A stretch of DNA of 64,000 nt from Anaeromyxobacter sp. (GTDB lineage: Bacteria; Myxococcota; Myxococcia; Myxococcales; Anaeromyxobacteraceae), in contig JASGJN010000022.1 in assembly GCA_049840735.1 (NCBI GenBank), forward strand, positions 908,778 to 972,777. The letters are read 5' to 3'. Under the pieces are notes generated by a model. It was not told the origin of the DNA. It saw only the letters and a list, made by a program, of their open reading frames with translations, and did no database searches. The translations under genes and the position numbers were made by a program. This document shows positions 7,377-55,869 of the stretch, in pieces; position 1 is the first letter of the stretch; each line of letters begins with the position of its first letter.

Positions 7377-7675
7377 TTGGCGCGCTGCGGATGTGAACGA
7401 GGCGCCCGCGAACCGTCGTGTCGCGGAAGGCCAACTCGACGGACGAGCGAGTGAGACAGTCGCTCTTGGAATTGCAGAGTGGCCCAAGAAGGGATTTCGA
7501 AGGGAGTCTGACGTTGACGTGAATAGGGCTGAGTAACGTCTCGTCCAAGTATCACTGCGCTTACTGGGGCGAGCATCATCGATTGGGAGCACTGGGGTAA
7601 CGCATTTCCCACGAATTGCGCGGCTGGGTGCGCCTGTTTGCCCGAATGGGCACAGCGAAAATGTGGAGGAGTGAA

Positions 7676-10600: not shown

Positions 10601-11345
10601 CGCAGCGCTCGATTGCAACGACGGAAGCGTGTGTACGACCGACACCTGTGTGGAGCCCCTCGGCTGTCAACATACTCAGGTGACGTGTAGTGACGGCAAT
10701 GCGTGCACCGCGGATAGCTGCAATGTAACGACGGGTTGTCAGCATACGACGTCAAATTGCAATGACGGCAATGCGTGCACCGTAGATACCTGCGATGTCG
10801 TTCAAGGATGTAAGTCGGTCGCCGTCGATTGCAGCGATGGTGACGCATGTACGACCGACACCTGCGACGTCAACATGGGGTGCGCTCATACGCCGACCTC
10901 CTGTGACGATGGCAATCCATGTACCGTAGATAGTTGCAATTCGAGTTCGGGTTGTTCCCACGTCGCCGCGGCAAATGGACTGAGTTGCACCGACGACGGT
11001 AATCCTTGCACGTCGGACGTTTGCTCTGCCGGGCTCTGCACTCACCCTGCGAGTGGCACTTGTGGTGCCAATCCTTGCTCCGGATTCTGCCAGAACCCAG
11101 TGACGTTTTCGGGAACCTTCCAGTCCGGCAACCTCGGCACGGGCGCAACCTGTCACGAAACCAAGGGCACCATCAACGGTGGCAATTGCGGTAACTTCGC
11201 CAGCGGACGGATCCTGACGGTCAATGGGCAGACCATGCCTTGCAACAACGGTAATTGGTCCGCGCTCCCGGCCAGAGTCAATGGCGGCTACTGCGTTCAG
11301 ACGACGGCCGGTAACTATTCGTGGGCGTACTTCGTGACTTGGTGA
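7676..11345 (+). CDS. Secreted zinc metalloprotease (M4/M36-like gluzincin) with a BACON-like domain, a beta-sandwich domain, Dictyostelium-type Cys repeats and a C-terminal Cys-containing module; frameshift near 10039
   Basis: RBS GGAGGA; lipobox-like IVGC; FTP/PepSY-like propeptide; NAWY, HHEYGH and GEGMGD; repeats CxDGNxCTxDxC. Removing one T from GATTC at 10039 joins ORF 7616..10375 to ORF 10086..11345. Confidence 0.85.
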
Positions 11346-13184: not shown

Positions 13185-13892
13185 TCAGTGGGCTGGCACA
13201 GCCGGCGGGGGATCGCACTTGAGCACGCCATCCGAATTGGAAATCGAACCAGGCGTGCAGGTCTGGAGCGTCATGGAGCTCGGGGTCGTGCTCGGCGCGC
13301 AGGTGCATGTCAACGTGGGCTGCGGATCGCAGGCCATTGCGCATTGTCCGCAGGACAGTGCATAAGATCCGTTCGGGTATTGGCACGGGCTCGGATCGGC
13401 GGGGCCCTTGCTGCAGGTCAAGACGCCGCTCTCGTTCGTGAGCTGCGCGCAACCGAGCGGGTTCATACGCAGCGGCTGTTCTTGCTTCTTCCACTGGCCG
13501 TCGGGTGAAGCGCATTCGCATTCCACCGTCACCTGGGCATTGTCGCGGTGCATGACGCAGTTGCGGCAGGAGTTTGCGTAATTGCCTTTAGGCAAGGCCG
13601 TGCATGCGAGCGCCCGATCGAGGACCGACACGTATCCACAAGGCAGATCGAGCGAGCTTTGCAGGCCCTCGCAGACGCAAGTGAGCCGATTGTTCCTGAT
13701 CGAGCAAGCCTTACATCGCGAACGAAAATCCCCATCTAGAGCGCTCACTCGCGTGGAGCGTTTGGCCTTGGATTCCGCCCGTGCAGCTGTGCGCTCGGCA
13801 CCGCCAAGCCACCGTCTGACCTTGCTGCATCCCGCGGTCTGCGTCAGGACTACGCCGACGAACAACCCGAAAAACCACGCGTTTCGACCCAT
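13185..13892 (-). CDS. Lipoprotein with cyanovirin-N-like (CVNH) lectin repeats
   Basis: Lipobox TAGC; repeated G[DNS][FY]xxSCxxC...LTCxC...[IL]xNxxGVLxC units. Confidence 0.7.
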   Translation of the reverse strand: MGRNAWFFGLFVGVVLTQTAGCSKVRRWLGGAERTAARAESKAKRSTRVSALDGDFRSRCKACSIRNNRLTCVCEGLQSSLDLPCGYVSVLDRALACTALPKGNYANSCRNCVMHRDNAQVTVECECASPDGQWKKQEQPLRMNPLGCAQLTNESGVLTCSKGPADPSPCQYPNGSYALSCGQCAMACDPQPTLTCTCAPSTTPSSMTLQTCTPGSISNSDGVLKCDPPPAVPAH

Positions 13893-14766
13893 TGCGATCT
13901 ACCGTTTCTCTTGAGTCTCGGCGACGGCTTCTCGTCGCGAGACCTAGCGGACCAATCCCGTCGACCGCCCGTACCACAGGTCACTCTTGTCGCAAAGAGC
14001 AAAATGGTCACGGTCTGGCAGATGCGTGGGCCAGCTCCACTCACGTCGGCCCGTCGACGTTCGTTGCGCTGCGGTGATTCGTGTTCGGGCGTCCAGAGAC
14101 ATTCGTCTGGCGAGGCTGCGGTAGGGCCTTCTCGATGCGACCGAGCGCGGGGAGTGGAGCCATTCGTTTGGCGTGTTTGCCATCCTGGATTCGAGTGCCG
14201 GTTCGTTTGCGGCTCGTCGTCGAATTGGATGAAGTGTTCTGGGCCACGGAGAACGTTCCGTGAGGCGATGCTGGTGAGCCACGCCGACTCCTTGCGATTC
14301 GTTAAGGCGAGTTGGGGTTATGCCTCGAACGAGGCGGCCAGGGGCACGCGTCGATAGCGTTCGCGAATCGAACTCTGCGCATGGGGGCTGGTGTGAGCTG
14401 CGTGACAACGTTGATTCCTCGGTTGGCGGCATCGATGGCGTTGGTCTCACGCGCTCCACGGAGGTTCAGCAGACGCGGCGCGGGCGAATTTCGCACCTGA
14501 CTGCATGTGGCTCGATGTCCGGAGGATGCACAAACAGTGCAAGCTGCCGTGCTCTGGTGCACAACTTGTGTAACGAACGCCGTGTGGTTCCTGCCAAAAC
14601 CACATCGGGGTACCTAAATCTGCAGCTGCTCGTCACGACGGAAGCCAGGCGCGCTCACCCGCTGTATCGTTAGGGCCAACGCGTCGAGTGGGCGATGGTT
14701 TGCACACTTGCCGTTGCATCCAGCGAGCGACATTCGCTCCTTAGGTCAGTGGAGAATCCCAGCGAT

Positions 14767-16653
14767 ATGCGAGAACGAGCCTTGCAACTCTCGAGCCTGT
14801 CCACGGTCTTCGTGATGATTCCGTTCGTCCTGACGGTCGCCTGCAGTGGCAGTGATGGCAATGGAAATGCGCCAGCGTCGAAGGGCGGCGCCGGTGGTCA
14901 AGGCGACGGTGGTGCGCCTAACGGAGGGAGCACGAGCCTCGATACGCACGTTGGCGGCTCGACGACGTTGCAGAGCGGAGGCACGTCGAACGGCGGAAAC
15001 TCCGGGATGGGGGGTGCCTCATCCCAAGGTGGAAGCGCCGCAGCCGGCGAGACCGCGCAGGCTGGCACGACCAGCACCGGTGGCACGAGCGCGCAGGGCG
15101 GCACGAGCGCGCAGGGCGGCACGAGCGCGCAGGGCGGTACGAGCGCGCAGGGCGGTACGAGCGCGCAGGGCGGTACGAGCGCGCAGGGCGGCACGAGCGC
15201 GCAGGGCGGCACGAGCGCGCAGGGCGGCACGAGCGCGCAGGGCGGCACGAGCGCGCAGGGCGGCACGACGTCGACCACCACTACCGTCGCTTGTACGACG
15301 CCGTCGCCTCGCTTGAGCAATTTCTTCGAAGACAAAGTAGCGCTTTCGGGACTCACGGTCGTTTCCTACGGCGGCTATCTCAATGGTGAGTCTTTCCAAC
15401 AGGATGGCATGCTCTCCTTCAATGGTTATCAGTATGCCTCCTTCTGGAACACCGATGGCAACGTCGTGCTCGCGAAACGTGTTCTTTCGACCGATCCGAC
15501 GAAAGTAGACGGTGCATGGCAGAAGATCGAACCCATCGCCAACAATGGCTATGTGAACACCTCCAACGACGCTCATAATACGATTTCCTTGGGAGTTAGT
15601 CCCAAAGACGGAGTGCTGCATCTCGCCATCGACCATCACATCAGCTCGCTGCACTACCTTACCTCGACGACCGGGCTGGTTACGAATCCCGAAAGCTCCG
15701 TATGGGCAGCGTCCAGCTTCTCCACCGTAACGAACACGTTGGTTACCGGTGAAACCGTCGATCAGTTGACCTATCCGAGGTTTCTCACGGAGCCTAGCGG
15801 CGACAAGATGCTCTTCAGTGCGCGCATTGGTACCAGCGGTGCCGGCGACGAATACCTCTGGGAGTACGATGCGAATTCCCGAACCTGGAGCGATATGGGC
15901 ATGTACCTCTGGGGGACGAGTTCGACGACGAGTTCAGCGAACGCTTACTTACACGGCCTTGCTTACACGAGAGGCGGAACGCGCTTGCATGCGGCCTGGT
16001 GTTGGCGTGAAACGCCCGATCCGATCACCAATCACGACCTGTATTACGCGTATAGTGATGACAACGGCCGCACGTGGCGTGACAACGCTGGAACGGTCGT
16101 TGCCGAAACGGGTAAGTCTTACGTGACGAAGGACACGGTGAGTGCTCGGGTTTGGAGCATTCCGCAGGATCGAGGGCTCATCAACCAAGAGCACATGGTC
16201 GTCGATTCCCTGGGGCGAGTTCACGTGCTGCTGTCCCACGTGCCGGACGGAGTGGCCACCACGGTTGGGAACTTCACGACTCAACGCACGCAGAGCCAGT
16301 ATTTTCACTACATGCGTGACACCGACGGCACTTGGAAACGGAGTTCCATCGCGAACACTCCCGTTATGTTGAACTTCCGAGGAAAGCTCGCGATTTCCTC
16401 GTCGAACAACGTCTACGCCATCTTGCCTATCCCATCCCCGACGAACTCGGCCGATCCGGCACTGCGGATCTTGGGTGCATCGCCCTGCGACCAATACGCG
16501 AAATGGACCGTGTTGACGACGAACACGACGCGCGCCTACTTCTCGGATCCGCTCGTCGATACGTCTCGGCTCGCGACGTCCAACGAGCTTACGGTTTACT
16601 ATCCGCAGAAGTCGTCTCCCAATATTTGGAATCTGGACTGGACTCTCGACTAG
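14767..16653 (+). CDS. Lipoprotein with a Gly-rich linker and a BNR_4-type beta-propeller (GH145/PL42/ulvan-lyase-like superfamily)
   Basis: Lipobox TVAC; FQQDG, NDAHNTISLG, LHLAIDHH, LTYPRF, NHDLYYAYSDDNGRTW, GLINQE. Confidence 0.8.
   Translation: MRERALQLSSLSTVFVMIPFVLTVACSGSDGNGNAPASKGGAGGQGDGGAPNGGSTSLDTHVGGSTTLQSGGTSNGGNSGMGGASSQGGSAAAGETAQAGTTSTGGTSAQGGTSAQGGTSAQGGTSAQGGTSAQGGTSAQGGTSAQGGTSAQGGTSAQGGTSAQGGTTSTTTTVACTTPSPRLSNFFEDKVALSGLTVVSYGGYLNGESFQQDGMLSFNGYQYASFWNTDGNVVLAKRVLSTDPTKVDGAWQKIEPIANNGYVNTSNDAHNTISLGVSPKDGVLHLAIDHHISSLHYLTSTTGLVTNPESSVWAASSFSTVTNTLVTGETVDQLTYPRFLTEPSGDKMLFSARIGTSGAGDEYLWEYDANSRTWSDMGMYLWGTSSTTSSANAYLHGLAYTRGGTRLHAAWCWRETPDPITNHDLYYAYSDDNGRTWRDNAGTVVAETGKSYVTKDTVSARVWSIPQDRGLINQEHMVVDSLGRVHVLLSHVPDGVATTVGNFTTQRTQSQYFHYMRDTDGTWKRSSIANTPVMLNFRGKLAISSSNNVYAILPIPSPTNSADPALRILGASPCDQYAKWTVLTTNTTRAYFSDPLVDTSRLATSNELTVYYPQKSSPNIWNLDWTLD
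15079..15258 (+). repeat. In-frame 18-bp tandem repeat x10 encoding (GGTSAQ)n
   Basis: GGYGGYACGAGCGCGCAG repeated 10 times inside the BNR_4 gene linker. Confidence 0.95.
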
Positions 16654-17527: not shown

Positions 17528-17965
17528 TCAGTCGACGGTCCCGATTCCCTCTCGATTGGGACGCGGGGGTGCGGTGGCGCCGCTCGGTTCGTCCGACGGA
17601 ATTGCGCAGCCCGTGTGGCACCGACGGCATCCACAATCCGCGTCGACCAATTCGCGGCAATTCGATGTTTCTGAATCGGTGACAACGGCGCCTCCGGAAA
17701 TTTGAAGCGTTCTACCGTGCACCAGCGCGTCGGCAACTTTCCTGTGCGCAGCTTCGATGATGCGTCCGAAGGTCGACCGCGAGACATTCATGCGTTCCGC
17801 GGCGCGTTCCTGATAGAGACCCTCGAGATCCGCGAGGCGGAGGGCCTCCAGTTCGTCGAGGGTCAGCATGACGAAGTTGTCGCTCTTCGGGGTGCCGTTC
17901 GCCGGACAAAAGCAAGTCGCGCCGGGACGCGCGCGCACTCGACGACAACACTGGGGACGAGGCAT
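17528..17965 (-). CDS. DUF134 (UPF0251) predicted DNA-binding protein with a Cys-rich tail
   Basis: MPRP..CRRV, LTLDELEALRLADLEGLYQERAAERMNVSRSTFGRII...KVADALVHG. Confidence 0.9.
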   Translation of the reverse strand: MPRPQCCRRVRARPGATCFCPANGTPKSDNFVMLTLDELEALRLADLEGLYQERAAERMNVSRSTFGRIIEAAHRKVADALVHGRTLQISGGAVVTDSETSNCRELVDADCGCRRCHTGCAIPSDEPSGATAPPRPNREGIGTVD

Positions 17966-17979
17966 GCGAAGGCCGTACC

Positions 17980-18717
17980 TTACTGGTTCGTGTTTTTGTG
18001 CCCGCCGCAACCGCAACCGTGAGAGCCGCGCTTCTCGTGCCCATCGCCGTGACAGCCGCAACCATGTCCTGCATCGTGTTGGCCGGTCTCGCCGTGACAG
18101 CCGCAACCATGTCCTGCATCGTGTTGGTGGGTCTCGCCGTGACAGCCGCAACCATGTCCGGCATCGTGTTGGTCGGTCTCGCCGTGACAGCCGCAACCAT
18201 GTCCGGCATCATGTTGTTTGGTCTCGCCGTGACAGCCGCAACCATGTCCTGCATCGTGTTGGTGGGTCTCGCCGTGACAGCCGCAACCATGTCCGGCATC
18301 ATGTTGTTTGGTCTCGCCGTGACAGCCGCAACCATGTCCGGCGCCATGTTCGTGAGCGTGCTCTTCGTGGTGGTGGTGGCACTCGCAGCTCGGTTCACCT
18401 TCGTGAGATTCGAGCTCGGAAAAGTGGGTGATGACGGCAGCCAAAGCGTTGGCCACGGATTGACCTTCGCCCACGACGGCGATGGTGATCCCGAGTTCCC
18501 TGAGGTGACGTTCTGCGCCAGATCCAAGGCCAGTGCAGATGAGTACGTCGGCGCCCTTCAGCGACTGCGCCAACGAGCGACAGCAACCGCCCTGGGACGT
18601 GATCTGTCGGGTGGTGCGGATCTCCGACTCTCCGACGTCGAGGAGAAATACGGGAAATTCGTGGCCGAAACGTTGAACGCGTTCAGATTCGGGCTGAGCA
18701 GAGATGGCGACGATCAT
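17980..18717 (-). CDS. NifB/NifX-family (FeMo-co binding-like) protein with a His/Cys tandem-repeat tail
   Basis: MIVAIS...RFG...F, GADVLICTGLGSGAERHLRELGI; C-terminal repeats GHGCGCHGETxQHDA. Confidence 0.8.
   Translation of the reverse strand: MIVAISAQPESERVQRFGHEFPVFLLDVGESEIRTTRQITSQGGCCRSLAQSLKGADVLICTGLGSGAERHLRELGITIAVVGEGQSVANALAAVITHFSELESHEGEPSCECHHHHEEHAHEHGAGHGCGCHGETKQHDAGHGCGCHGETHQHDAGHGCGCHGETKQHDAGHGCGCHGETDQHDAGHGCGCHGETHQHDAGHGCGCHGETGQHDAGHGCGCHGDGHEKRGSHGCGCGGHKNTNQ
18044..18341 (-). repeat. In-frame 45-bp tandem repeat (about 6.6 copies) encoding GHGCGCHGETxQHDA
   Basis: Unit TCGCCGTGACAGCCGCAACCATGTCC... recurs at 18044, 18089, 18134, 18179, 18224, 18269 and 18314. 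Confidence 0.95.
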
Positions 18718-18734
18718 GGGGCCTCTGGGGGCCA

Positions 18735-18760
18735 GAGTATTGAGCATATGCTCAATACTC
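18735..18760. promoter_or_regulatory. Perfect 26-bp palindrome, putative operator of the nifX-like/DUF134 operon
   Basis: GAGTATTGAGCAT|ATGCTCAATACTC; AT-rich; 18 bp upstream of the start at 18717. Confidence 0.75.
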
Positions 18761-18858
18761 GCAACGAATCGTTGCTTCACCGCTCCGGTTTCCTCGCCCC
18801 AACTGTGTCGGTCTGAGGGCCCGCCCGTTGGGCGGGCCAGACGGTTCTACGCTTGGAC

Positions 18859-19918: not shown

Positions 19919-20923
19919 CTATTCCCAGCAACCGACGTGGGTCGGGGTGACCAACACGCGATCGACGTTCACGCTCGCGGCGGTACCGGCCCATTCGGCG
20001 CCCATGGCAACCGCCCCAATGCCACTCGTCGGGAGCGTATCGACTCCCGTTTCATCGAGAACCAATGCGTCGTCCAAGAAGACCTGCACGCGTCCAGCGT
20101 CGCCAATTTCGACCGTCAGCTCGACACAGTGCCACTCTCCAGGGGACAACGCGCTGCTAGTGCCAATGGGTGTCGTGTACGACCAAGTCTCCAACCGTCC
20201 GCTTTTCGTGACCAACCGAAGTGCCCACGCTTGTTCATCGTCGGACCAGAAGGCGAGAGGAGCCAGATCGTAGTCGACTTGTCCCGAAGGGAGCTGGAGC
20301 CAGCCACGGACGGAAATCGATCCCGACGAAAGGGGTGAGAAGCTCGCTCGGAGATACGCCGTCGAGGGCCCAGCGACGACTTGCGTCGCGAGCGCCTTCG
20401 CTCCCGACAAAGTTGCCATCTCGACTGGGGTGGCAGAATTATCTGTCGTCACGATGCTCTGGTATCGATCGGTCGAACCCTCGAAGTCCTCACACACGAG
20501 GGCATCTGCATATTTAGCACAGTCAATCGCAGGTAGAGCCTCGGTGCAGGTGCCGCGATAGCAGAGTCGTCCCGAGTCGCAATCGGCCGACGACGTGCAG
20601 GCTGGCAAACAAAGTCGTGTGCTCGGCTCTCCGCGGCACTCGAGCTGCGCAGATTCCGAGGTGCTGCAGGTTCCGCCCACGGAGGCGCAATCGACGTCCG
20701 TACTGCACGTCGGCGTGCAGCGTCCGCACGAGCACGCGAGACCGCCGCAATCGGACGTGCTCTCGCAAGTGCGAAGCCAATTGGTATTCGAGCCCGAGGC
20801 TTCTCCGCCGGGTTGACTGCATCCAAAACCACAGACGAGCAAGAGCGCTCCGATGCACCACCGCACCATCCCGAGGTAACCAGGCGCTCCGCGGGATCCT
20901 GCTGCCACGTCGATGCGACTCAT
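19919..20923 (-). CDS. Lipoprotein with Cys-rich repeats and a C-terminal LamG/lectin-like beta-sandwich
   Basis: Lipobox [13 protein letters not shown], several CxxxxDC units, CEDFE...GEWHCVEL; the start overlaps the upstream stop (ATGA). Confidence 0.7.
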
Positions 20924-21900
20924 CCTTCGTCCTCCGTCGGCCATTCCAGTTGCCCGAAGTAAAACGTGACTCGACGTCGGCTGGCGTCGGGCACGGGGTG
21001 TTCCGCGTTGTAGGATTCGACACGTTGCCACAGCGCGTTCACCTCATTGCGGGTGCGGGCCAGAAGGGCAAGCACTTCTTCCCGAAGTGGGTGCTCTGGA
21101 TGGATTTCGAAAGCCAATGTGGCACCTCCAGTAGTATCCGTGCTCTCGGCCCGAGTGTGACGCCTCTGCAATTTGGTGGCGATTGCGACGCACATGGCCT
21201 GAAAGTGATCGAACACTGCCGCTTCCCACCCCTCGGTTGCTCCGACGGGGACGACCATTGGATCGACCATCGTGCGCCCTTCTTCTCGGCGGATCCTACC
21301 CTGGTCTTCGAGCAATGCGAAGGCTTCGTCGACGTGTGCGGTCGGCACCGAGAGCTCGGTGGCGATGGAGTCCACGCTTTTCGTGCTGTCGCGGCAGAGC
21401 GCGAGCCAAACCAGGGCAGCAGTCGTTTCGCGTACGCTTTCCCGAGCGAGAGCGATGCGATCCTCGTCGCGAACCACGCCATATATCGTGTCGTTTCCGC
21501 TTCCAGTTCGATAGACGAGACCGCTCGACACGAGATCGTTCAAGACTGCACCGACCGTCAGGGGATCGTCGTTCCGGAATCGATCGAGCAAGCGGCGTCT
21601 AGGGAGCGGCGCCTGCTTCTCGATGTATTCGAGCAGAGCTCGCCACAGAGTGGTGCCACGATCCGTTGCACTCTCACGGAGTCGTTGGACGCGCCTTTGG
21701 TAGCCGCGGAGCGCCATTCCGAACATGTCCGCAACGACTTTGCGCGATACGCCTTGGCGCTCGAGCTCCTGCGACAAACTGAGGAAGACTTCGTTGGCGA
21801 TGTGAGCGAGAGGCGCCCTCACGCCAGCCGACGAAGACAACTGAGCGATGAGGACGGTCGCCTGCCGCACGATCGAGTCGACGAGAACTTGGGTGTCCAC
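20920..21900 (-). CDS. Conserved hypothetical protein with predicted HTH elements (putative regulator)
   Basis: GVSRKVVADMFGMALRGYQRRVQRL is HTH-like; winged-helix-like VGAVLNDLVSSGLV and VDEAFALLEDQGRI. Confidence 0.65.
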   Translation of the reverse strand: MDTQVLVDSIVRQATVLIAQLSSSAGVRAPLAHIANEVFLSLSQELERQGVSRKVVADMFGMALRGYQRRVQRLRESATDRGTTLWRALLEYIEKQAPLPRRRLLDRFRNDDPLTVGAVLNDLVSSGLVYRTGSGNDTIYGVVRDEDRIALARESVRETTAALVWLALCRDSTKSVDSIATELSVPTAHVDEAFALLEDQGRIRREEGRTMVDPMVVPVGATEGWEAAVFDHFQAMCVAIATKLQRRHTRAESTDTTGGATLAFEIHPEHPLREEVLALLARTRNEVNALWQRVESYNAEHPVPDASRRRVTFYFGQLEWPTEDEG

Positions 21901-22015
21901 GTGAAGGCCATTGTCCTTTCGGTTTGACCATTCGTCTACCGGGGACGACATGGCCAAGGCAGGTGGCGTGCAGGCCACCTCCCCATGAGCGCGATGGTCT
22001 TGTAGCGTAACGGAC

Positions 22016-23063
22016 ATGAATGTTTCCCGTCTCCAGTGGCTATTCGCCGTGGCATTGCAGGTCGCCTGTGCGTCGTCGGAAGGGGCGGACTCGCCGGACT
22101 CAGTGGGCGGAGGTGGGACAGCTAGCGGTGGTTCGTTGGCCGGAAACGCCGGCGGGCACGTCGGAGCCGGCGGCTCTTCGGGCGCATTTACGGGCGGCGC
22201 AAATGCGAGCGCTGGCGGCGGTGGTCGTTCGGAGAGCGGCGCAGGAGGTGATGCAAATGTCGGCGGCGCGACGACTTCGAATACCGCGGGACGTGGTGGC
22301 GCTTCGGCGGCACGCGGTGGTAGCACAAGCTCGAGCTCCACGAGTGTGGTCGGCAAACGCGGGATAGCCGCGAATGTTGCGCCCGCCGCAGCGTTCTTTC
22401 CGTCGGTGAGTTGGTGGTACAACTGGGCAAATAAGAGTACCGGCGCGGATGTGGGGCTCGAGTTCGTTCCGATGATTTCGGAACCAGGCAACCGTCAACT
22501 CGCCCTTGCCTGCATCGGCGAAATACGTGCTTGGCTTCAACGAACCGAACTTCTTCGCGCAAGCGAATCTCTCCGCGTCGAGTGCAGCGGGCTATTGGCC
22601 TGCCCTCGAAGCGACCGCGAGCGCAGCGGGCGTTGCCATCGTCGGACCCGCCATGAATTATTGCGGCCCCGCATCGCAGTGCCACGCAACCGATCCGTAC
22701 CAGTACCTCAAGGACTTCTTTGCTGCATGCCCGAGCTGCAAGGTCGATTACGTCGCGGTGCATTGGTACAATTGCGATTTGCCATCGCTCCGTGACTATC
22801 TAGAGCCTGGCGGTAATCTCCCTGGATTCGAGCAATTTGGAAAACCGATTTGGCTGACCGAGTTCTCCTGCGATTCGAATGCGAGCATTGCTGAACAGGA
22901 GGCTTACATGCGCGCAGCCATTCCCTACCTGGAGAGCAATCCGAAGGTCTTTCGCTATTCTTGGTTCAGTGCCGATCCCATCCCGAACGCGAAGCTCGTG
23001 AACTCGGACGGGTCTCCCACGGCCTTGGGTAAGGTGTACATCTCTCTGCCGCGAGCCAAGTGA
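22016..23063 (+). CDS. Lipoprotein GH128-like (Glyco_hydro_cc) beta-1,3-glucanase; frameshift near 22474
   Basis: Lipobox QVAC, Gly linker, KRG, SWWYNW, EFVPM(IW), LGFNEP, VAVHWY, KPIWLTEF, RYSWF. Confidence 0.85.
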
Positions 23064-23079
23064 AGGAGGAAAGCGATCG

Positions 23080-23953
23080 ATGTGCAAACCTGCGCGAATT
23101 CGAACGGTCGTGTTGCTCGTCGGGGCGCTTGCCTCGAGCTGCTCTGCGTCTCCGTCGTCTGAGTCCGAAAACGGTGCTGGAGGAACCCTCGGAGTATCGG
23201 GCCAGAATGGCGCCAACGTTGCCGGGACCCCTTCGTCCACGGATGCGGCGGCCTTGGGCGGCGAAAACTCCCGCGCGGGCGGCGGCACGGGAGCGTTCGT
23301 GGGTGTAGGCGGTGGTGGATTGCCGTCAACGGCAACCAGCAAAGCGGGCGCCACGGGCGCCGGTGGTGCCACTTCCTGTGCGTCCGATGGCGACGGAACC
23401 ACGACTCTCCAGTTCGTGAATCTTTGCCCCGAAGCGGTGACATTTCGCGGGAGCGACGACGTGAGCGGAGCGCTCGCTTCTGGGGCCGCAAAATGTGTCG
23501 ACGTCGGCACCGCGACGGAAGCACTCTCGTCGAAGCGCTACTGGGGCTGGATTGGCACCGATCCCGGCTCTGGCCGCCATACGCTCGCCGAATTTACGTT
23601 CAATACGGACTTCTACGACATGGATTGGTACAACATCAGCCACGTCGACGCGCACAATCTTCCAATGGCGATTTTGCCGATGGCACGTCCTTCGTGCAGA
23701 AAGCTCAGCTGTCCACAGGATTTCATCGCGGCGTGTCCGGACGTTGGTCGATTCCGGGATACTGGCGGCACTGTCGTCTCTTGCGTGAGTCCGGAGCGTG
23801 ACAATCCGAACAGCGCCGTAGCTCTGTTGTTCGAGCAATGTGACGACGCGTACGCTTGGTCGGGCGACGACCAACGCGGCACGGACATCAGCCCAATGGT
23901 GGGCTGCGAGGTGGAAGATTTCCAGATTGTGGTTTTGTCCGGAGGCGAAATGA
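23080..23953 (+). CDS. Lipoprotein with a thaumatin-like (PR-5/GH152-like) domain; C-terminal frameshift near 23925
   Basis: Lipobox ASSC; FVNLC, TLAEFTF, WYNISHVDAHNLPMAI, C.DAYAW..DD; repaired C-terminus FQIVFCPEAK*. Confidence 0.8.
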
Positions 23954-25323
23954 GGCCGCTGTTTGGTTTGTGCGTCGTGGTGACGGCGTGTCACGGAATC
24001 GGTGCCGCGGAGAACGGACACGCCGACGATGACTCGGGGCCCATCTCGAACGCGGGGGGACGACCGACGTCATCCACCTCGAGTGGTCACGATGGAGCAT
24101 CGACTGCCGGTGTATCGTCGAATACTCGGTGGCGCGTCCGCGTCCGGGGGCGTCGGTGCAATCGGTGGAGCGACAGGGGATACCACGCAGGAACAGGATT
24201 CTCTCGGTGCCTATCCCGTTGCCCCATCTCCGGTGACCCTTGGTGGCACCATGACCTTTACGAACATCGGTGGTCCCGGTTGGTGGCCGAGACGCATCGA
24301 TAGGCCCGCGGGGGATTCCGCGTGCACGTACAAGGATGGAACGGACACTTGGGGCGGTCATTGCTGCATGACACGAGAGGTCGCGACCAATTCAGATCTC
24401 GCACCTTTCGATCGCGAAGTGACGCTCATTCTCAAGGCTATCGACGTGAAGCAGCTTGCCATCTACCAAGCCACCGACGCGTCGACTGATGCCAGCTGGC
24501 ATCGCGTGACGGCTTGGGACGCCCGTACCCGTCGAGCGGATAACCTCTGGTTTACGCAAGAGGGGGATGGGGCTCCGAGCTTCCCGGGTGACCTCACGAA
24601 AAACGACTGCGTGGGGTACGTCATGCAATCTCCTCGATTCAAATGCGGGGACGGAAGCCAATACTACTGTCCCCAGATTCGAGGGGTGCTCCACGACGGA
24701 TACGAGGGTTCGAAGCTCGTCGTATTGCTCGCCTCGGTCACCTTCGACGATGAGCGCGTGCGGGCATGTGGGGGGACGGGGGCGGGAAAACCCTCGCCCT
24801 GGGTTGCGATAGTCGCCTCGGAGCTCGTCCGCGATGGCGGCCGCAAATGGAACGGTCTCTGCAACTGCTACTCCAAAACCGGAACGGTGGGAGACGGTTG
24901 CGGCGAGATAACGTGTTCGAGGTCGTCATGGACGACAACGCCTATTCGAATCGGGAGTTCGCTAGTACCGGAGTACGTTCTTATCAGGTCGGTCACATCG
25001 GCGGAGCCGTTGCTGGGTCGTCACTCGCGCCCGCTGACTTTCCTGCGGACAGCGATGTCGTCGACGTTTGCTCCAAGAAGGCGTATGCGAGCGGCCCCGC
25101 GCTCGTTGCAGGTGGCGCGACGGATGGTTGTCCCGTGTGGCGTCGTCCCGAGGGCGATTGATACTACTTCATCCTACTCGACGCTCCGACGCGAACCATT
25201 CAGGTGGGGGTTCTGCATCCGCAGAATCTGCCCGCCACTCTGGCGGGGATCTTTCCGTCATTGCCAGCAAAGATCGAGCGGCGGGATATCGACGCTCTGG
25301 CGTCTCTTCGACTACCGCGATAA
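23950..25323 (+). CDS. Lipoprotein resembling the fungal Tos1/YJL171C family (DUF2403 + DUF2401); two frameshifts and one in-frame TGA
   Basis: Lipobox VTAC; MTFTNIG, LAPFDREVTLILKAIDVKQLAIYQ, PWVA, CNCY...GCGE(INVFE). Breaks at about 24120, 24907 and 25159 (TGA). Confidence 0.6.
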
Positions 25324-25329
25324 TCGGAG

Positions 25330-25934
25330 TTGCTCGGGGGCGACGATAACGACGTCATTCCCGTCGAAGGCAGCTGTCTCATTGGAATCGGTGCCGTCAC
25401 TTGTCATGGCCTGTTCTCCGGTATCGTCATGATGATGCTTCAAAGCATGATCACGCCTGCCGTTCGTACCAATTCGGATAAGAGCCCCGCCAAGATCTTG
25501 CCTGTCGTCAATCGGGCCCTTTAGGCAACGTTCGACATCGCTTACGTGGAAGCGATCACGCAACACTGCCACTTTTTCGGCACGAGCCGAGCGGGCGATT
25601 GCTCTTCTCCGGTGCTCACGCCGAGCCTTGGATTTGCCGAAAGCGAACAGGGCAGGGTGATATCGTCCTGCCTCCAGGTTATTGGCTCGGCGCCTTTGAA
25701 GACGTGGATGCTATGACGCAAGATCTCGAGGTCACTCTCGAGGATGGCGACCGAGTCGTGCTTTATACGGACGGGGCGACCGAGGCCCTGAACGCGGCAC
25801 ACGAGCTATTCGGATTGGGTCGTTTGAAAACGTTCGTCGAGCGACATGCTTCGGAAGGTCCCGACGCACTGCGGCAGGTCATCCTCGATGCGATGGACGG
25901 ACGTCGCCGTCCGTCCACACCTCCGTGTCGCTAG
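25330..25934 (+). pseudogene. Degraded SpoIIE/PP2C phosphatase fragment
   Basis: IGAVTCHGLFSGIVMMML (catalytic GDV.GHG altered), in-frame stop at 25522, later GDRVVLYTDGATEA; no N-terminal domains. Confidence 0.7.
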
Positions 25935-27172: not shown

Positions 27173-28333
27173 TCAGGGCGTCCAGCGCAACTCGCCCGCG
27201 TCGAGTGACACCTCGTAGTACCCGTGAGGATCCCAGGTGAGCGGCACATCCTTTTGGATGAGGGTCCCACCGTCCACGGTAACGCGGAGGACGCGTGCTG
27301 GGGGAAAGTGCGAAGGGAGTGTCCACGTCCAGGTGTTATCATTGGCAACGAGCGCTTCGAGCATCCGTTGGGCTCGCAAATAGGCACCAACTGCGCCCAT
27401 GGTGTCGAACCACAGGTTACCGAGGGACTTCGCGTGCGCGATGCTCGTCAATATTTCCGCGATTTGGACACCCGCATACCAGTTATTGGCGGTCGGGAGG
27501 ATCGAGTGGAAAAGGAAGATCGTCCATCGACCATTTCGTTGGGTCTCGTCAATCGCTGCGTTGAATTGCAGAGCGGTCTGTCCCGCAGTCACCGCAAACA
27601 CGGGTAGATTGTACCAATCGTTTACCCCCGTAGCTGGGACTGAGCCGCTTGCCACTCCCCGACCGAGGAGGAACCGTGATGACGCCGTTGCATTCCATCC
27701 CGTATCACCAAAGGGTGCAGCGAACGAGTAGACTCGAGGAACCCCGAAGTGGGTCTTGATGTATTCCGTGGCCTTGTCAATCTCGTCCTCTGCGGTCCCA
27801 ACGGGGGTGCAGTCGGTGAGATTGGCGTGACAATGGCTCCAGGTGTGATTCCCTATTTCGCTACCGGCGGCAGCGACGGATGACCAGGTTGCATCGAATC
27901 CTTGCTGCCAATTCGCCGAAGGATTGGCAAAGAACGTCATCTTAACACCGGTGCCTTTCAGCGCTTTCCAGTGTTCGATCTGCGAGGGCTGCGTGTCGTC
28001 GAACGTGTAGGACAGGGCCGCGGCGAATCCGGCCCAGGGCAATACACGCAAATTGGGGGTGCTCACCGAATTGCTCGGGCGCGGCACGTCATGATTCGGT
28101 CCCGAAGGCAGTGACCCGGCTACGCCGAGCCCGTCACGCGAGCCGTTCTCTCGGGCCGTGGGCGTCGATGTCAGCCGTGCGACATCGGTCGTCGGCGAGC
28201 TTCCAGCCGAGGAAGTCGAGTTGCTCGAGCCTACGGTGTTTACTCGTTTGCTGCAATCCATACAAGCGGTCATGCACCCAAGTAGTAAAAGGCCTGCGAT
28301 GAGTGGGATGTCGGAGGAGAATCGATTGACCAT
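27173..28333 (-). CDS. Polysaccharide deacetylase (CE4/NodB) lipoprotein
   Basis: SYTFDD, EIGNHTWSH, FAAPFG, IFLFH. Confidence 0.85.
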   Translation of the reverse strand: MVNRFSSDIPLIAGLLLLGCMTACMDCSKRVNTVGSSNSTSSAGSSPTTDVARLTSTPTARENGSRDGLGVAGSLPSGPNHDVPRPSNSVSTPNLRVLPWAGFAAALSYTFDDTQPSQIEHWKALKGTGVKMTFFANPSANWQQGFDATWSSVAAAGSEIGNHTWSHCHANLTDCTPVGTAEDEIDKATEYIKTHFGVPRVYSFAAPFGDTGWNATASSRFLLGRGVASGSVPATGVNDWYNLPVFAVTAGQTALQFNAAIDETQRNGRWTIFLFHSILPTANNWYAGVQIAEILTSIAHAKSLGNLWFDTMGAVGAYLRAQRMLEALVANDNTWTWTLPSHFPPARVLRVTVDGGTLIQKDVPLTWDPHGYYEVSLDAGELRWTP

Positions 28334-28397: not shown

Positions 28398-29355
28398 TCA
28401 TTTCCGGCGGAGGCGGCGCGGTTGTCGGGCGTGAAGAAAGTGGCTCGGCGTCGTTCCGCGATGGGCGACGAACACCCGATGAAATTGCGCGTAGCTGCCG
28501 AAGCCGGCGTCGAGGGCCGCCTTGAGGAGGTTGTCGCCGTCCCGAGCGACGAGTTCGTTGAAGCGCGCCAGCCGGAGGCGGTTACGATATTCCACGACCG
28601 AAATGCCGGCTTCCGCCTTGAACAACTTGGCAATCCGGCTGGCACTCAGGCGAAGCGTCACGCTGAGTTGTTCCGCCGTCAACGTTGGATCCGCATCGAG
28701 GAGCTTCATGGCTCGCGTGACGACGGACGACGGGCTTGCGGGCAGCTCTGCGAACAGGGACTTGCCTCGTCCTTTGGCGGAATCCAAGGTGCTCGCGAGA
28801 AATGAACAAAGCAGTGCCGCCTTGGACTGTTTCGTCTCATCGACGGGCTCGTCGGTGAGTCCCCGTCATTGAACATGGTTCCGAAATCTCCGATGCAGAG
28901 TAGACCGGCGTGCAGCAAACCCAGCCATGTGCGACGACACGAGACTCTTGCTCCGTATGTACTACGCGGGGAGCGTTCTCGACGATGGTCCAGTAAACTC
29001 CGTCACGAATCGCGCGTTCGAGGTGTTCCCGCTCTCCCTCCCAGATATCGAAGGTGATGAAATGTTCGTCCACCGTGTGGCCTTCGAAATCGGTGCCCCA
29101 AGTGCCTCTCATGAAGCCAATCCTATCGTCTCTGAGGAAGAGCGCGACCCGGGTCAGGCCAATCCGTTCACGTGCGAATTCGACGGTAAGGCGGAGCAGC
29201 TCGTCGATTTTGTCGCAAGCGACGAGTTCACGAAAGGCAGACAGCAGCGGTGCGAAATCCGTCGATGGTCGTCCCTCGTGCACCAACGGCCGAGGTGGCT
29301 CCGCGGTGGGGAGATGCTGCCAATCGACGCGTCTACGCGGAAACAAGGCCAACAA
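28398..29355 (-). CDS. AraC-family regulator with an N-terminal GAF-like domain; frameshift near 28885
   Basis: C-terminal EYRNRLRL...AALDAGFGSYAQFHRVF; N-terminal MRGTWGTD...WVCCTP. Confidence 0.8.
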
Positions 29356-33839: not shown

Positions 33840-34270
33840 CTTCGAGCGGGAGGTAGTTTTCTGACTCGAGGTGCCTAACGGGGACGGATCCTCGTGATCG
33901 AGCGTGCTCGTGAGCGCGCATTCTCGAGGTGCGTGCGATTGACGCGAAACCTGGGCAAAAGTGCTCCCGACACCACGGAGATTGCGTGAGGCTCCGCACC
34001 TCTCGTCGTTGCTTATCATTTCCGATGCGGTGGAGATTCGTTACGACACTTCGTTGCAGCGCCTCGAGCGTCAATCTCATCGGCAATGAGCACGGCATTC
34101 GAGCGTCGATGTGTGCTCGCTGGCGCACATCTGACCTACGGTGATCCGAATCCCTGCATCCTCCGCGCCTCGACTCAAAAGTGGGAGCATTTTGAGAAGC
34201 GGTGGGAATATTCCAGATGTATTTCGGCACACCATTGAGATAGTTAAGCATGCTCTTTCGATGTCCCGGG

Positions 34271-37200
34271 ATGGTGGCAAGGTCACTGGTCGCGCTGACT
34301 CTGTTCGTTGCTTGTGGGGGGCAACCGAGCATTGAGGACCCGGATGGTTCGAGCTCCGAAGGGGGAACCAAGGGCCGCGGCGGATCGACTTCCACCAGCA
34401 CCGATCCTGGGATCCCTGAAATACCAGATGCCTCCACTCCAGATGCCGGGACCGATGCCGTTTGCGGGAACGGCAAGGTCGAGATTGGTGAGATTTGCGA
34501 CGACGGCAATCGTACCGACGGTGACGGATGCAAGGGTAACTGCCTCGAGCAAGATCCGGACTACATTTGCTCCGACGGCAAGTGCGTAAAATACGTCATC
34601 TGTGGCGACGGTCAGCTTCAGGGCGACGAGGCCTGCGACGACGGCAACACGAACGCAGGCGACGGTTGCTCAGCGAACTGCAAATCGACGGAGAGCGGAT
34701 TCGAATGCGCTCGCCCAAACAAGCCGTGCGTTGCGCTCTCCATCTGCGGCAACGGCGTCCGCGAACGTGGTGAGCAATGCGACGACGCCCAGTTGCCACC
34801 CAAGGACGGTGACGGCTGCTCCTCGACCTGCCAATTGGAGGCTGGATACTTCTGTCCTACGGGTGCCACGTGCGTCAAGTACGTCTGTGGTGATGGTGCT
34901 CGCACGCCCGACGAGGACTGCGACGATGGCAACGCCACGAACGGTGACGGATGTTCCTCGACCTGTAAGAAGGAAGATGGTTGGATCATCACGGAGTCCG
35001 GCGCGAAGGCGGCGTGCGGGGACGGTCTCATTCGCGGTAACGAAGCCTGCGACGACAAAAACCAATTGAGCGGAGACGGATGCTCTGCGACCTGCAAGCT
35101 CGAACCGCTGACGGTCTGCACGGGGGAACCAAGCATTTGCTCGAGCACGATCAGTTGTGGTGACGGCAAAGTCCAAGGCGCCGAGGTGTGCGATCCGCCG
35201 AGTGCGACCTGCTCCTCGGATTGCCGCCGGTACATCGTACCTGGTACGGTTTGTGGCAACGGCGTTTGGGAGAGCGGCGAAGCTTGCGAAGATAGCGGGA
35301 CCTTGGACGGCGATGGGTGCAGCGCGAGTTGTACCGTCGAGATGGGCTGGCGTTGTCCTCAAGTCAATTACTGCTTCAAGCTGCCGGTGTGCGGCAATAC
35401 CGTGCGTGAGCGCGGTGAAGGCTGCGACGACGGCAATCAGAGTAGCGGTGACGGTTGTACGTCGAGCTGCCAACTCGAGCCCGGATACTTCTGCCCCCCG
35501 GGTGGTGCCTGCATATTATTGAGCTGTGGCAACGGAGTTCGCACCCGCGACGAGCAGTGCGATGACGGGAACCTGGCCAACGACGATGGTTGCTCGAGCA
35601 CTTGTAAGCTCGAGCTCGGTTGGATTGACACCGGCACTGGCACGAAGCCCATCTGCGGCGACGGCCTGATTCGTACTGGCGAGGCATGCGACGACGGCAA
35701 CAACGTCAATGGTGACGGTTGCTCGTCGGCGTGTCGCGTCGAGCCTCTCATGGAGTGCACCGGGCAACCGAGTGTTTGCGTGAGTTCCATCGAGTGCGGA
35801 GACAACGAGGTTCAGGGAACCGAGGTCTGTGATTCCGCCGAACGTCAACAACTGCGCTGCGGACTGCAAGAGCTTCGTCATCCCCGGCACCAAGTGCGGG
35901 AACGGAGTCTGGGAGAGCGGCGAAGGTTGCGATGACGGCAATACGTCGAATGGCGATGGCTGTGACTCGGCTTGCAAAGTCGAGACCGGTTGGAAGTGCC
36001 CACAAGCCAACCTTTGCTTCAAGTTGCCGGTGTGCGGCAACAGCGTGCGGGAACTCGGAGAGCAGTGCGACGACAGTAACGCCGCCGCAGGCGACGGATG
36101 TAGTGCGACGTGTCAGCTCGAGGCCGGGTTCTTCTGTCCGCCGGTCGGAGCCTGCGTCCGCCTGAGTTGCGGCGACGGCAATCGCACGCGCGACGAGCAA
36201 TGCGACGACGGAAATCTGCTGGCCAACGACGGATGCTCGGCAACCTGCACGACCGAGCCCGGCTGGATTACCACGAGTTCGGGCGCTCGCCCCATCTGTG
36301 GTGATGGCCTGCTTCGCGGAGGAGAGCCCTGCGACGACCACAACAACACGAGTGGCGATGGCTGCTCCTCGACGTGCCAAGTCGAGCCACTGATGCGTTG
36401 CACAGGCGAGCCCAGCGTTTGCACGAGCACCATCGTATGTGGTGACGGAAAAATCCAAGGCACCGAGGTCTGCGATCCCCCCGGCACGAACAATTGCGCA
36501 GCAGGTTGCAAGAGTTTCGTCATTCCCGGTGCGGTTTGTGGCAACGGACTCTGGGAGAACGGTGAAGGTTGCGACGATGGCAACGCTAAATCGGGCGATG
36601 GCTGCAGTCCGTCCTGCGCGATCGAAACGGGCTGGAAGTGCCCGCAAGCGAACTTCTGCGTCCTGCTTCCGGTTTGCGGCGACGCAGCCGTGAATTCGAG
36701 CCTCGAGGAATGCGACGACGGCAACACCGTCAGCGGCGACGGTTGCGCAGCCGATTGCTTGGTGGAAGCCAGCTGGTTCTGCTCTGGACTAGCCCCGTCC
36801 GTTTGCACCCACGAGGTGTGCGGCAATGGCGTCCGGACGCCAACCGAGGGTTGTGACGATCGCAATCTCGCTGGGTCCGATGGCTGCTCCTCGCTTTGCG
36901 TGGTCGAGGACGGCTGGGCCTGTCCCGTCGAAGGAAGTGCGTGCATCCCGAAGTGCGGCGATTCCAAGGTACGCGGAAGCGAAACCTGCGACGACGGCAA
37001 CACGGTCAGCGGCGACGGGTGTACGGCGAATTGCCGTTCCGAGTTCGGTTACACCTGCACTGGCGCAGGTCCCGGTACCTGCGTGAAAGGGGTGTGTCCG
37101 AACGGCAAGACTGACAACGGTGAGAGCTGCGATGACAACAACAGCGTTGCAGCCGACGGTTGCGGTCCGACCTGCCAGACCGAGCCCACAATCACCGCGG

Positions 37201-40200: not shown

Positions 40201-40731
40201 CAAAAGACCAACGGCGAAGAGTGCGACAACGGATACAACGAGGACAAGTACAGCTTCTCGAGTACGTCTTGCGGGACTGGCTGCAAGGCGGTGCCTCGCT
40301 GCGGTGACGGCATACTCCAATCGCTCTACGAGCTCTGCGACAACGGCGTGCTCAACAGCGACACGACGTACAACGGTTGCAACACGAAGTGCGAGTGGGG
40401 CCCCTACTGCGGCGACGGCAAGAAGGATCCCGAGGAGGTTTGCGACAACGGCTCGCGCAACGCGGCTTACTCGAAGACGCCCGGTGGTTGCAGCTTCGAC
40501 TGCCAGCCCGCGCCCTATTGCGGAGATGGCGAGCGCAATGGACCCGAGCAGTGCGATCTAGGTACGGACAAGAACACCGGCGCCTACGGTGGATGCAACG
40601 CGGACTGCTCGCGTGCGGCGTACTGCGGAGACCACATCGTCCAGGCCGACAAGGGCGAGGCCTGTGACGATGGCCTGACGGGAAGCATGTCTTGCTCGAC
40701 GACGTGCTCGCGGCGCGACATCTTGCAGTGA
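34271..40731 (+). CDS. Giant (about 2150 aa) lipoprotein made of DUF4215/Myxococcus Cys-rich repeats around a central fibro-slime (PA14-like) domain; frameshifts at 35831 and 39327
   Basis: Lipobox FVAC; dozens of CG[DN]G...E.CDDGN...GDGCS..C units; fibro-slime motifs RDF...HPDFE, HNFHFTTE, GDDDVWVFING.LAVDIGGVH, FHAERH...SNF. Confidence 0.9.
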
Positions 40732-44816: not shown

Positions 44817-45844
44817 TTACTCGATGGGCGTCTCCGAAATGAGGAAGTCGTCGAAGTCGAGGATCTGCTGAGTGCTGGGCGCCCAGGTGTCATCGCTTCC
44901 ACCGAAAAAGGTCGAGAAGTAGAGGGCGTCGATCCCGAAGGTTGCCCCAGCGAGGCGGTAGAGGAACGCTTGCTCGTCGAGCGCCAGGTTTCCGTCGAAC
45001 CACGCTTGGAGGATGCCGTCATGCGCACCCGGCGTGTTCATTCGGATGTGGTGTTGCACGCGGTGCCAAACGCCAGGCGTGAAGGTCACTTTCGTATCGT
45101 TCGTTTCGTAGACGTAATCGTCCCCGCAGCTGTTCACCTTTTCGGGAAAGTACATGTACTGCACACAGGCACCGCCTGGGCGCCACATCATGCGTGCGGA
45201 GAAACCGCCCGGAATCGGCGACGCAACCCGTCGGGTGTGTGCCTCCGACCAAGCCCGGTAGCTTGCCTCCGCGAACGAAGTCGAATCCGTCCGCAAAACG
45301 CAACCGGTAGGACAAATAGAGCTCCTCGAAGGATGCCGAGAGCGGGATCAAGAACTGAACGCCGCCATCGGTAGGGCCGTAAACGGCTGCGGGATAAGTG
45401 ACTCTGAGTGCTCGGGCGCCACCTTCGTCGATGATTGCCGCTCGACCATCGTCGAGCCCGTCGTTCCACGTGGCTGGGCCGGAGGAAATCCTCCGACGCC
45501 ATGCTTTGCGTGTAGAGCCCCACTTCACGCTGCTGGAAGTCGACATGAACGAGTGCCTTCGTTCCGTTGCCTGCGCCGGCGGTCGATGCAGTCGTCGCGG
45601 CGGTCGCGCCACCAACTTCGGGATTGCTGCTCGAACCCGCACTCGGTGCTCCGCCCGACGATGTTCCTCCGGTTGCGCCATTCGTCGATCCCCCTACTGA
45701 AGGCGTGGAGGAGGCACCGCTCCGCCCTTCAGTCGTGTCGCTTTTTGCGTCCGACGAACTGCAAGCGAGTTGCGCTGCCACGATCGACACGCCGATCACG
45801 CAAGTTGAACACAGCGAGCGAGACTCAGCGAACCTTCGGGGCAT
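44817..45844 (-). CDS. PL14-like polysaccharide lyase lipoprotein; frameshifts near 45485 and 45212
   Basis: Lipobox QLAC; LRVTYP, FDFVRGGKLPGL, GFSARMMWR, FSTFFGG. Confidence 0.8.
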
Positions 45845-55611: not shown

Positions 55612-55869
55612 GGGGACCAAAAAGCGTACCACGCGCGGCCAAAGTTCAAAGGCTCGAGGGGTAGTACGGCGCGGAACCTCCTTGGGCTCCGCCGTCCAGA
55701 GCGGAGCTGTGGACATTGGCGTGGTCTCTGGATTATCGTCTCGTCTCCGGATGGACCGGTGATGGCATACGGCGTGCGCGTTCTTTCGGACGCGCATCGA
55801 CGGGCTCCGCGAATGCTTGCGGGATGCCGTTCGTGGTTCCCGGGCTGTGGAGCGAGTGGGGAGCAAGTC

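Follow-up and report, generated by a model that had tools for sequence, protein, structure and literature searches.

Do three neighbouring lipoprotein genes of different families form a genuine bacterial module directed at β-1,3-glucan and, if so, whose module is it and what would it do? This question is raised by a stretch of 64,000 nucleotides (hereafter 'the window', meaning the whole of the DNA analysed) at positions 908,778–972,777 of contig JASGJN010000022.1 (C22) in the Anaeromyxobacter sp. assembly GCA_049840735.1. There, a predicted enzyme of glycoside hydrolase family GH128, a thaumatin-like protein (TLP) and a relative of the fungal protein Tos1 (hereafter Tos1-like) are encoded one after the other, next to a regulator gene. 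The original prediction, made from the sequence letters, took these genes for a surface-anchored operon that attacks fungal or oomycete walls or remodels the cell's own glucan. We find that the cassette is real, conserved and modular in the Polyangiaceae, with reshuffled partners and β-1,3-glucan as the predicted common substrate.

Linkage across Polyangiaceae genomes

The three families were surveyed in 383 Polyangiaceae genomes, with 5 kb as the neighbour distance. Tos1-like genes gave 119 matches in 105 genomes, TLPs of the window's type were found in 58 genomes and GH128 in 153. A TLP lies near 23 of the 119 Tos1-like matches, upstream and on the same strand in all 23 cases; in an initial TLP search, seven of eight loci had a Tos1-like gene directly downstream. 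GH128 is a neighbour of at least 47 of the 119, a lower bound, as the best 150 of 225 GH128 matches were used (two unpublished genomes, G344 and G345, are part of this tally and of no other result). Either partner accompanies at least 65 matches, and both accompany at least five. By our own arithmetic, chance would give a linkage of about 0.2% per gene; the clustering is far beyond this, though kin are not independent.

The original prediction looked for conserved co-occurrence of the whole set. Linkage does recur; however, the triplet is not the conserved unit, TLP–Tos1 and Tos1–GH128 pairs are. A TLP is directly upstream in 20 of the 27 closest Tos1-like matches, and in the next clade (41 matches) a downstream GH128 occurs in at least 24. 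All three families are clustered in at least six genomes, and the sixth triplet (G347) has the window's gene order with a plant-like TLP and a Tos1-like gene of a deeper clade. Strong matches to the window's TLP subfamily come from 45 genomes, every one of which has a Tos1-like gene, against 105 of 383 overall. In one genome (G181), TLP and Tos1-like genes stand at contig ends and were probably split by assembly. The window-type Tos1-like family was found in none of 350 other genomes drawn across the phylum.

Gene order and orientation vary among loci. In a quick tree, for which loci were chosen mostly for having partners and of which the careful search was unfinished, each of the three bacterial subclades includes Tos1-like genes with a GH128 neighbour. 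In two loci, TLP and Tos1-like domains are fused in a single open reading frame (L010, 705 amino acids; L034, 738 amino acids). Other neighbours of Tos1-like genes are GH64 (L024, L026), GH16 with an SKN1/KRE6 co-match (L003, L013, L034) and plant-like TLPs (L014, L046). GH158 and GH16 of the SKN1/KRE6 type act on β-1,3-glucan, as does GH64 by its Pfam label. Tos1-like genes stand beside five families of β-1,3-glucanase type, which is independent genomic support for the substrate of the Tos1-like protein. The proposed convergence on β-1,3-glucan is supported, GH16, GH64 and GH158-like genes being also among the neighbours. In two clusters (L018, L019), one or two GH128 genes accompany a pair of Tos1-like genes that belong to separate subclades, with ExN and QxN motifs.

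The three encoded domains

The reading of the locus as three co-oriented lipoprotein genes was accurate in its coordinates (table 1), including a 16-bp gap (23064–23079) and an ATGA overlap (23950–23953). Genes 1, 2 and 3 each start with a hydrophobic signal whose last residue is Cys (C18, C21 and C14, respectively), after which comes the expected low-complexity linker of Gly, Ser, Ala and Thr. A lipobox had been claimed throughout; its pattern is matched in genes 2 and 3 but not in gene 1. The family calls hold, through profiles for genes 1 and 2 and homologues for gene 3; the Pfam and synteny surveys that had been proposed as checks gave both profile matches and co-occurrence elsewhere. A scan for sigma-70 promoters and terminators gave nothing above shuffled controls, and no NCBIfam family matched any of eight proteins.

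Table 1. Cassette features, numbered by position in the window.
Feature	Position	Strand	Basis
Predicted lipoprotein: Cys-rich N-terminal segment (GSNTNWL-x-C motif) and ConA/LamG-like β-sandwich	19919..20869	-	PF13385, 26.0 bits versus cut-off 27.6
Predicted transcription regulator, helix–turn–helix (HTH) and winged-helix segments	20920..21900	-	TrmB profile, 27.2 bits versus 25.6; further winged-helix matches
Candidate operator between the divergent genes: 18-bp palindrome GGTGGC-N6-GCCACC	21962..21979		Motif search
Gene 1: predicted lipoprotein, GH128 (subgroup II-like)	22016..23063	+	PF11790, E 2.5e-43; frameshift near 22480
Gene 2: predicted lipoprotein, thaumatin-like domain, ~190 amino acids	23080..23953	+	PF00314, E 4.1e-14; frameshift near 23931
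Gene 3: predicted lipoprotein, bacterial Tos1/YJL171C (DUF2403+DUF2401)-like domain	23950..25323	+	Homologues; two frameshifts and a stop

For gene 1, PF11790 scores 148.8 bits on the C-terminal piece and 19.7 bits on the N-terminal piece (cut-off 21). The gene matches PDB entries 6UAX (E 4.4e-52) and 8J3X (E 7.8e-34), and both catalytic Glu motifs of GH128, FNEP and WLTEF, are present and aligned with these two structures. Judged by these motifs, its product is a predicted β-1,3-glucanase and the sole cassette protein with a full catalytic signature. According to PMC10956234, 6UAX is ScGH128_II, of subgroup II, and 8J3X a curdlan-specific endo-β-1,3-glucanase of the same subgroup whose catalytic residues are given. 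At locus L017, a GH128 gene with two differences from 6UAX in the catalytic domain lies 8 bp downstream of a Tos1-like gene, the product of which is sister to a Sorangium protein in the quick tree. The 'Sc' of ScGH128_II presumably stands for Sorangium cellulosum. No mention of a Tos1-like neighbour of ScGH128_II was found in the literature searched, the original structure paper being outside that search.

Gene 2 scores 53.2 bits against PF00314 (cut-off 27.4), and its model (pLDDT 83.7) has the thaumatin fold. The top Foldseek match is 7P22, a TLP of Amycolatopsis (E 1e-12, TM 0.76); structures of GH64, a related fold, appear lower in the list. In the window domain the acidic cleft reads R-E-N-D-D (R54, E72, N86, D91 and D164) rather than the complete REDDD, the residues being mapped by what we take to be the REDDD numbering. 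Across 19 aligned TLPs, R, E and two D residues are invariant, and 16 have Asn in place of one cleft Asp. Glucanase activity is ascribed to the REDDD cleft, and GH152 TLPs with such activity are known (PMC11800479). From its residues, gene 2 is classed as a predicted thaumatin-like protein, not as an active GH152 enzyme.

The Tos1 profile PF10290 gives 17.1 bits on a piece of gene 3, versus a cut-off of 27 which intact relatives straddle (26.9 bits in L004, 28.7 in L007, 44.0 and 31.3 in L026). Homologues of gene 3 number 185 proteins at E ≤ 0.001; the best of them, P0001, is intact and 80% identical, and many of those with names are labelled 'DUF2403 domain-containing lipoprotein' and come from Polyangiaceae. 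Gene 3 is also collinear with eukaryotic members, with 26% identity over 267 amino acids to a TOS1-like protein of Abortiporus, and a profile of the bacterial proteins reaches fungal, oomycete, green-algal and amoebozoan members; Protostelium and Bryopsis have Tos1-like proteins too. Instead of the canonical GH16-type motif ExDxxE, 119 of the 120 homologues listed have ExNxxE. In the window the motif is read as E-I-N-V-F-E, and both glutamates (E301 and E306) are invariant in its Tos1-like clade. Deeper clades have QxNxxE (13 more distant bacterial representatives), and ExDxxE is found in eukaryotic members and in one bacterial-looking lipoprotein, P0201. The latter groups, on a long branch, with eukaryotic Tos1-like proteins and not with the Polyangiaceae family.

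The Tos1/YJL171C/PGA52 family was reportedly predicted by Steczkiewicz in 2010 to be a circularly permuted GH16. A PDB sequence search with the Tos1-like profile gave no match. The model of P0001 (pLDDT 79) has GH16 entry 5JVV as best structural match (VIA-align: Z 6.5, root mean square deviation 3.9, 159 residues aligned). Many GH16 rows are among its matches, the top one, a GH16 glucosyltransferase, being tied with other folds; hhalign gave 16 columns at probability 1.1. The structural match begins at about model residue 164 versus the GH16 N-terminus, as a permutation would give, and the modelled register is consistent with the predicted circularly permuted GH16. Gene 3 is classed, from sequence comparison, as a putative Tos1-like bacterial subfamily rather than a canonical Tos1 member. 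PMC4664879 counts Tos1/PGA52 among the secreted wall proteins that are most abundant in Candida, and classes fungal Tos1 as a GH16 protein modifying wall β-1,3-glucan.

Two statements of the original prediction need amending. A 'catalytic-type domain' had been assigned to each gene: the GH128 signature is full, but TLP and Tos1-like protein each miss one canonical acidic residue. Nor is the label 'mostly eukaryote-associated' supported for GH128 and thaumatin, since GH128 occurs in 153 and thaumatin domains in 105 of the 383 Polyangiaceae genomes, and bacterial structures exist (6UAX, 7P22).

The divergent regulator and its palindrome

The back-to-back gene described as HTH-like indeed has winged-helix matches and is divergent, and this linkage recurs in a subset of genomes. 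Among 40 genomes chosen for having a Tos1-like gene, 32 contain the regulator family, with up to 33 copies each. In 12 of 13 copies (those examined include window 19919–21900, L032, L033 and L035–L045), the regulator is followed by a Cys-rich lipoprotein with a G[ST]N[ST]xWL-type start and a variable C-terminus, one of them detected only with tblastn. Of the six copies with the best scores, four adjoin a TLP, three divergently and one co-oriented, each with a partner lipoprotein of the ConA type. Full-length orthologues of the ConA-type lipoprotein (44–47% identity) follow the regulator next to a TLP in L005, L028, L032 and L033, and the window's protein is a candidate glucan sensor. A resemblance of the regulator to HetR in language-model features (0.91; 200 of 256 shared) is a lead only: no HetR entry came up when the regulator's profile was searched against PDB, nor in the Pfam families listed for it.

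The palindrome is also present upstream of four other cassette-linked regulators, which together with the window formed the training set for a motif search. The window's site is the best in a 147-kb low-GC stretch around it (23.7 bits versus 12.5), but it belongs to that training set. Held-out palindromes of 17.7–19.5 bits lie upstream of the L032 TLP, the L034 fusion and a GH158-like lipoprotein of L005. This last protein (L005:4301–5680) has GH158 as its only PDB match (E 7e-8) and a Pfam match to a GH2 TIM barrel. In five loci the palindrome starts 53–57 bases before the likely start codon. On the opposite side, three of 11 paralogous regulators have an upstream palindrome at p ~0.005, and others carry variant palindromes. 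By its sequence, the palindrome is likely to be an operator in a subset of genomes; it may instead form a 5' RNA hairpin.

Origin and state of the window copy

All 26 contigs of the assembly have a G+C content of 71–76%, but the last part of C22, beginning at position 825,500, has only about 61%. This low-GC stretch (G000:C22:825494–972777, ~147 kb) contains the whole window. At the junction, a gene of the assembly organism for a transporter of the MFS and a low-GC gene for a membrane protein are both truncated mid-frame. Additional copies of glnA and metK lie in the low-GC stretch, with 59% and 65% identity to those of the assembly organism. The GlnA of the stretch is 69–71% identical to the best match in three of five Polyangiaceae genomes, the remaining two giving 46% and 51%, and 60% in four of four genomes of the assembly organism's genus. 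A search for gene 3 in 60 relatives of that organism gave one weak partial match (E 1e-4), treated as chance. We consider it very probable that the stretch is an assembly chimera, Polyangiaceae chromosomal DNA having been joined mid-gene to a contig of ~74% G+C. A genuine genomic island was judged unlikely given genes cut mid-frame on both sides, no tRNA near (the closest is 180 kb off) and duplicate glnA and metK, a judgement made without running an integrase profile. As the window is most likely Polyangiaceae DNA, the cassette is not to be credited to the assembly's organism, and users should be aware that ~147 kb of C22 most likely come from another one. A second stretch of about 60% G+C, with genes that look different, lies at a contig end (C25, ~126000–161792). 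The high-GC organism has a GH128 gene of its own (G000:C7:7440–8180), 45% identical to that of the window.

All cassette frames are broken in this copy. Frameshifts lie near 22480, 23931, 24130 and 24910, and gene 3 is interrupted at 25159 by an in-frame TGA where homologues have Arg. The frameshift near 23931 sits just before the C-terminal FCP of gene 2, and that near 24910 falls within the GH16-type motif of gene 3. Independently of function, the lesions could mark a pseudo-operon in decay and not sequencing errors in an intact operon; we hold such decay to be unlikely. Decay would fit a lesion density (five per 3.3 kb) above a crude modelled background of 0.23–0.32 per kb in the low-GC stretch, from a model that caught two of four known frameshifts. 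It would also fit the deviation of gene 3 at four of 141 conserved columns (10% of homologues deviate as much) and the intactness of the flanking regulator and ConA lipoprotein genes. However, three frameshifts are in or beside short base runs, and P0001, the closest homologue of gene 3, is intact. Moreover, the assembly-organism part of the contig itself has 0.43–0.5 modelled frameshifts per kb, and the assembly therefore looks error-rich.

What the cassette would do

On balance, it is rather probable that the cassette is a surface module with which a Polyangiaceae bacterium captures and digests external β-1,3-glucan, most likely that of fungal or oomycete walls. Lipid anchors and long linkers would hold the three domains at the cell surface, where GH128, with both glutamates kept, would make endo-cuts in the glucan. 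The TLP and the Tos1-like protein would bind, grip or loosen insoluble glucan, or cut it slowly; the change from Asp to Asn in the TLP cleft and in the Tos1-like motif is the reason why both may bind rather than cut. Released oligosaccharides would enter via unlinked transporters. Control of the operon would fall to the divergent regulator and its ConA-type partner, acting at the 18-bp palindrome. As glucan source, the walls of fungi and oomycetes are most plausible, given reports of myxobacterial β-1,3-glucanases that perforate or damage them (PMC10800785, PMC10971235 and PMC13669512). Dead biomass, curdlan, laminarin or callose would fit the sequence equally well, and a living target is not separable from a dead one on this basis.

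Several observations weigh against this digestion module. Among the matches listed, 54 of 119 Tos1-like genes lack a partner at this distance of 5 kb, and TLPs of the Sorangium type are remote from Tos1-like genes. No TonB-dependent or sugar ABC transporter was seen among the neighbouring open reading frames scanned, which were picked heuristically, and uptake is therefore taken as unlinked. As for the domains, three of 19 aligned TLPs retain the cleft Asp, and a change from Asp to Asn need not abolish catalysis. The frameshift at 24910 hits a motif codon in the window, the Asn of which is therefore deduced from homologues. The GH16 fold match of the Tos1-like model is weak, with no match at Z 8 or more and, in Foldseek with the P0001 model, none at E ≤ 0.001. 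On the regulatory side, the palindrome reaches p < 0.01 upstream of only two of 25 non-training cassette genes, and one shuffle gave four matches at the 14-bit threshold versus eight observed. Finally, the five lesions in 3.3 kb exceed background with a Poisson P of 0.002–0.06.

A different division of labour, unlikely in our view, would make all three proteins active β-1,3-glucanases with complementary cutting. Like AcGlu13.1–13.3 of Archangium, they would serve as a weapon used on contact with living fungi or oomycetes. The window's Tos1-like clade does keep both GH16-type glutamates, the R, E and two D that are invariant in TLPs are present in the TLP, and GH152 TLP glucanases are known (PMC11800479); GH64, an active family of related fold, can also adjoin Tos1-like genes. 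Yet the helper Asp of the Tos1-like motif is Asn in those 119 of 120 listed homologues, and deeper clades have Gln for the first Glu and still the same neighbours. We hold as equally unlikely a bolder form of the capture-and-digestion reading. The Polyangiaceae Tos1 branch would have lost its helper Asp (and, in two subclades, the first Glu as well), becoming with the thaumatin domain a non-catalytic, glucan-gripping pair for feeding on fungi. Control of the pair would lie with an undescribed family of HTH/winged-helix regulators, of which a genome may hold up to 33; each regulator, partnered by a Cys-rich sensor lipoprotein, would read its own variant of the 18-bp palindrome. This would be a new lipoprotein-coupled form of signalling, with β-1,3-glucan as its first assignable input.

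It is improbable that the Tos1-like protein and the TLP are lectin-like receptors or transglycosylases that sense glucan or tether the cell to it, in prey recognition or adhesion, with GH128 freeing inducing oligosaccharides. Clades with QxNxxE, which are without the presumed nucleophile, would agree with such a role, as would the GH16 glucosyltransferase that ties with other folds as top structural match and the linkage of regulator and ConA-type lipoprotein in five loci including the window. However, no transmembrane or signalling domain is present on the Tos1-like proteins or TLPs, and the minority of cassettes with an adjacent regulator speaks against it as well. Remodelling of the bacterium's own β-1,3-glucan (slime, spore coat) is very improbable: fungal Tos1 is indeed classed as a wall-modifying protein (PMC4664879) and all parts are predicted to be cell-anchored, but no glycosyltransferase or export gene was found among the neighbours scanned (whole genomes were not searched for glucan synthases), the spread is patchy (105 of 383 genomes) and shuffled catabolic partners (GH5, GH9, GH10, GH12, PL14) lie nearby.

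Other genes of the window

Directly 3' of the cassette is a partial frame for a SpoIIE-type phosphatase (25400–25934), and an AraC-type regulator, apparently in two pieces, is found at 28398–29355. Other genes related to carbohydrates encode BNR_4 (14695–16653), polysaccharide deacetylase (27173–28333), PL14 (44820–45347), pectate lyase (54142–55986) and CVNH lectin (13188–13898) proteins, several of them linker-bearing lipoproteins. Long Cys-rich repeat proteins (34244–40728 and 7601–11342; myxobacterial DUF4215 and Dictyostelium-type) are split by probable frameshifts. At 17528–18780, a DUF134 gene is next to that of a NifB/NifX-type (Nitro_FeMo-Co) protein with C-terminal His/Cys-rich repeats (HDAGHGCGCHG), likely a metal-binding tail.

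Significance and comparison with known systems

Each family, the bacterial GH128 and TLP structures and the NCBI label for DUF2403 lipoproteins are already known. The coupling of TLP to Tos1-like protein, the Tos1–GH128 operons, the altered motifs and the regulator with its palindrome are undescribed in the literature searched, which did not extend to supplements. The GH16 assignment of Tos1 rests on prediction, and the bacterial homologues offer simple proteins for assay; in Sorangium-type genomes, the partner enzyme of the Tos1-like protein already has a crystal structure. The cassette also hints at a way in which fungal or oomycete biomass may be used by Polyangiaceae and, through its candidate operator, gives access to a large regulator family that has no name.

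The best PDB matches of the window's GH128 are ScGH128_II (6UAX) and its subgroup II relatives 8J3X and 6UAV, with aligned Glu motifs; the window enzyme is only 46% identical to the ScGH128_II-type enzyme of L017. The TLP shares its fold and the R, E and two D of the cleft with thaumatin-like/PR-5 proteins (CAZy GH152) and with 7P22 of Amycolatopsis rifamycinica. It differs from them in being predicted to be lipid-anchored with a linker, in the replacement of a cleft Asp by Asn (16 of 19 proteins), and in being translationally coupled or fused to a Tos1-like domain. Similarly, gene 3 resembles fungal and oomycete Tos1/YJL171C/PGA52 (PF10290 and PF10287) in collinear homology and, to judge by where the weak structural match begins, may share a permuted register. 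In contrast to these ExDxxE proteins, the bacterial ones are lipoproteins that a long branch sets apart in the quick tree (SH-aLRT 100), have ExNxxE or QxNxxE, and are encoded next to glucanase genes.

At the level of the whole system, review articles describe anti-fungal and anti-oomycete glucanases of Archangium AC19 (AcGlu13.1–13.3, with activity in the culture supernatant) and Corallococcus EGB (GluM and IamC, in the spelling used there). Compared by this description, the cassette would be alike in that several β-glucanases of one myxobacterium are aimed at eukaryotic walls. It is unlike in that those enzymes belong to other myxobacterial genera, and the window-type proteins are predicted to be lipid-anchored and occur in Polyangiaceae. 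The cassette also recalls SusC/SusD polysaccharide utilization loci, in which surface carbohydrate-active enzymes for one substrate are likewise co-located with an adjacent regulator. Unlike those loci, it has no TonB-dependent transporter or SusD-like gene among the scanned neighbours, and it comes in small, reshuffled cassettes.

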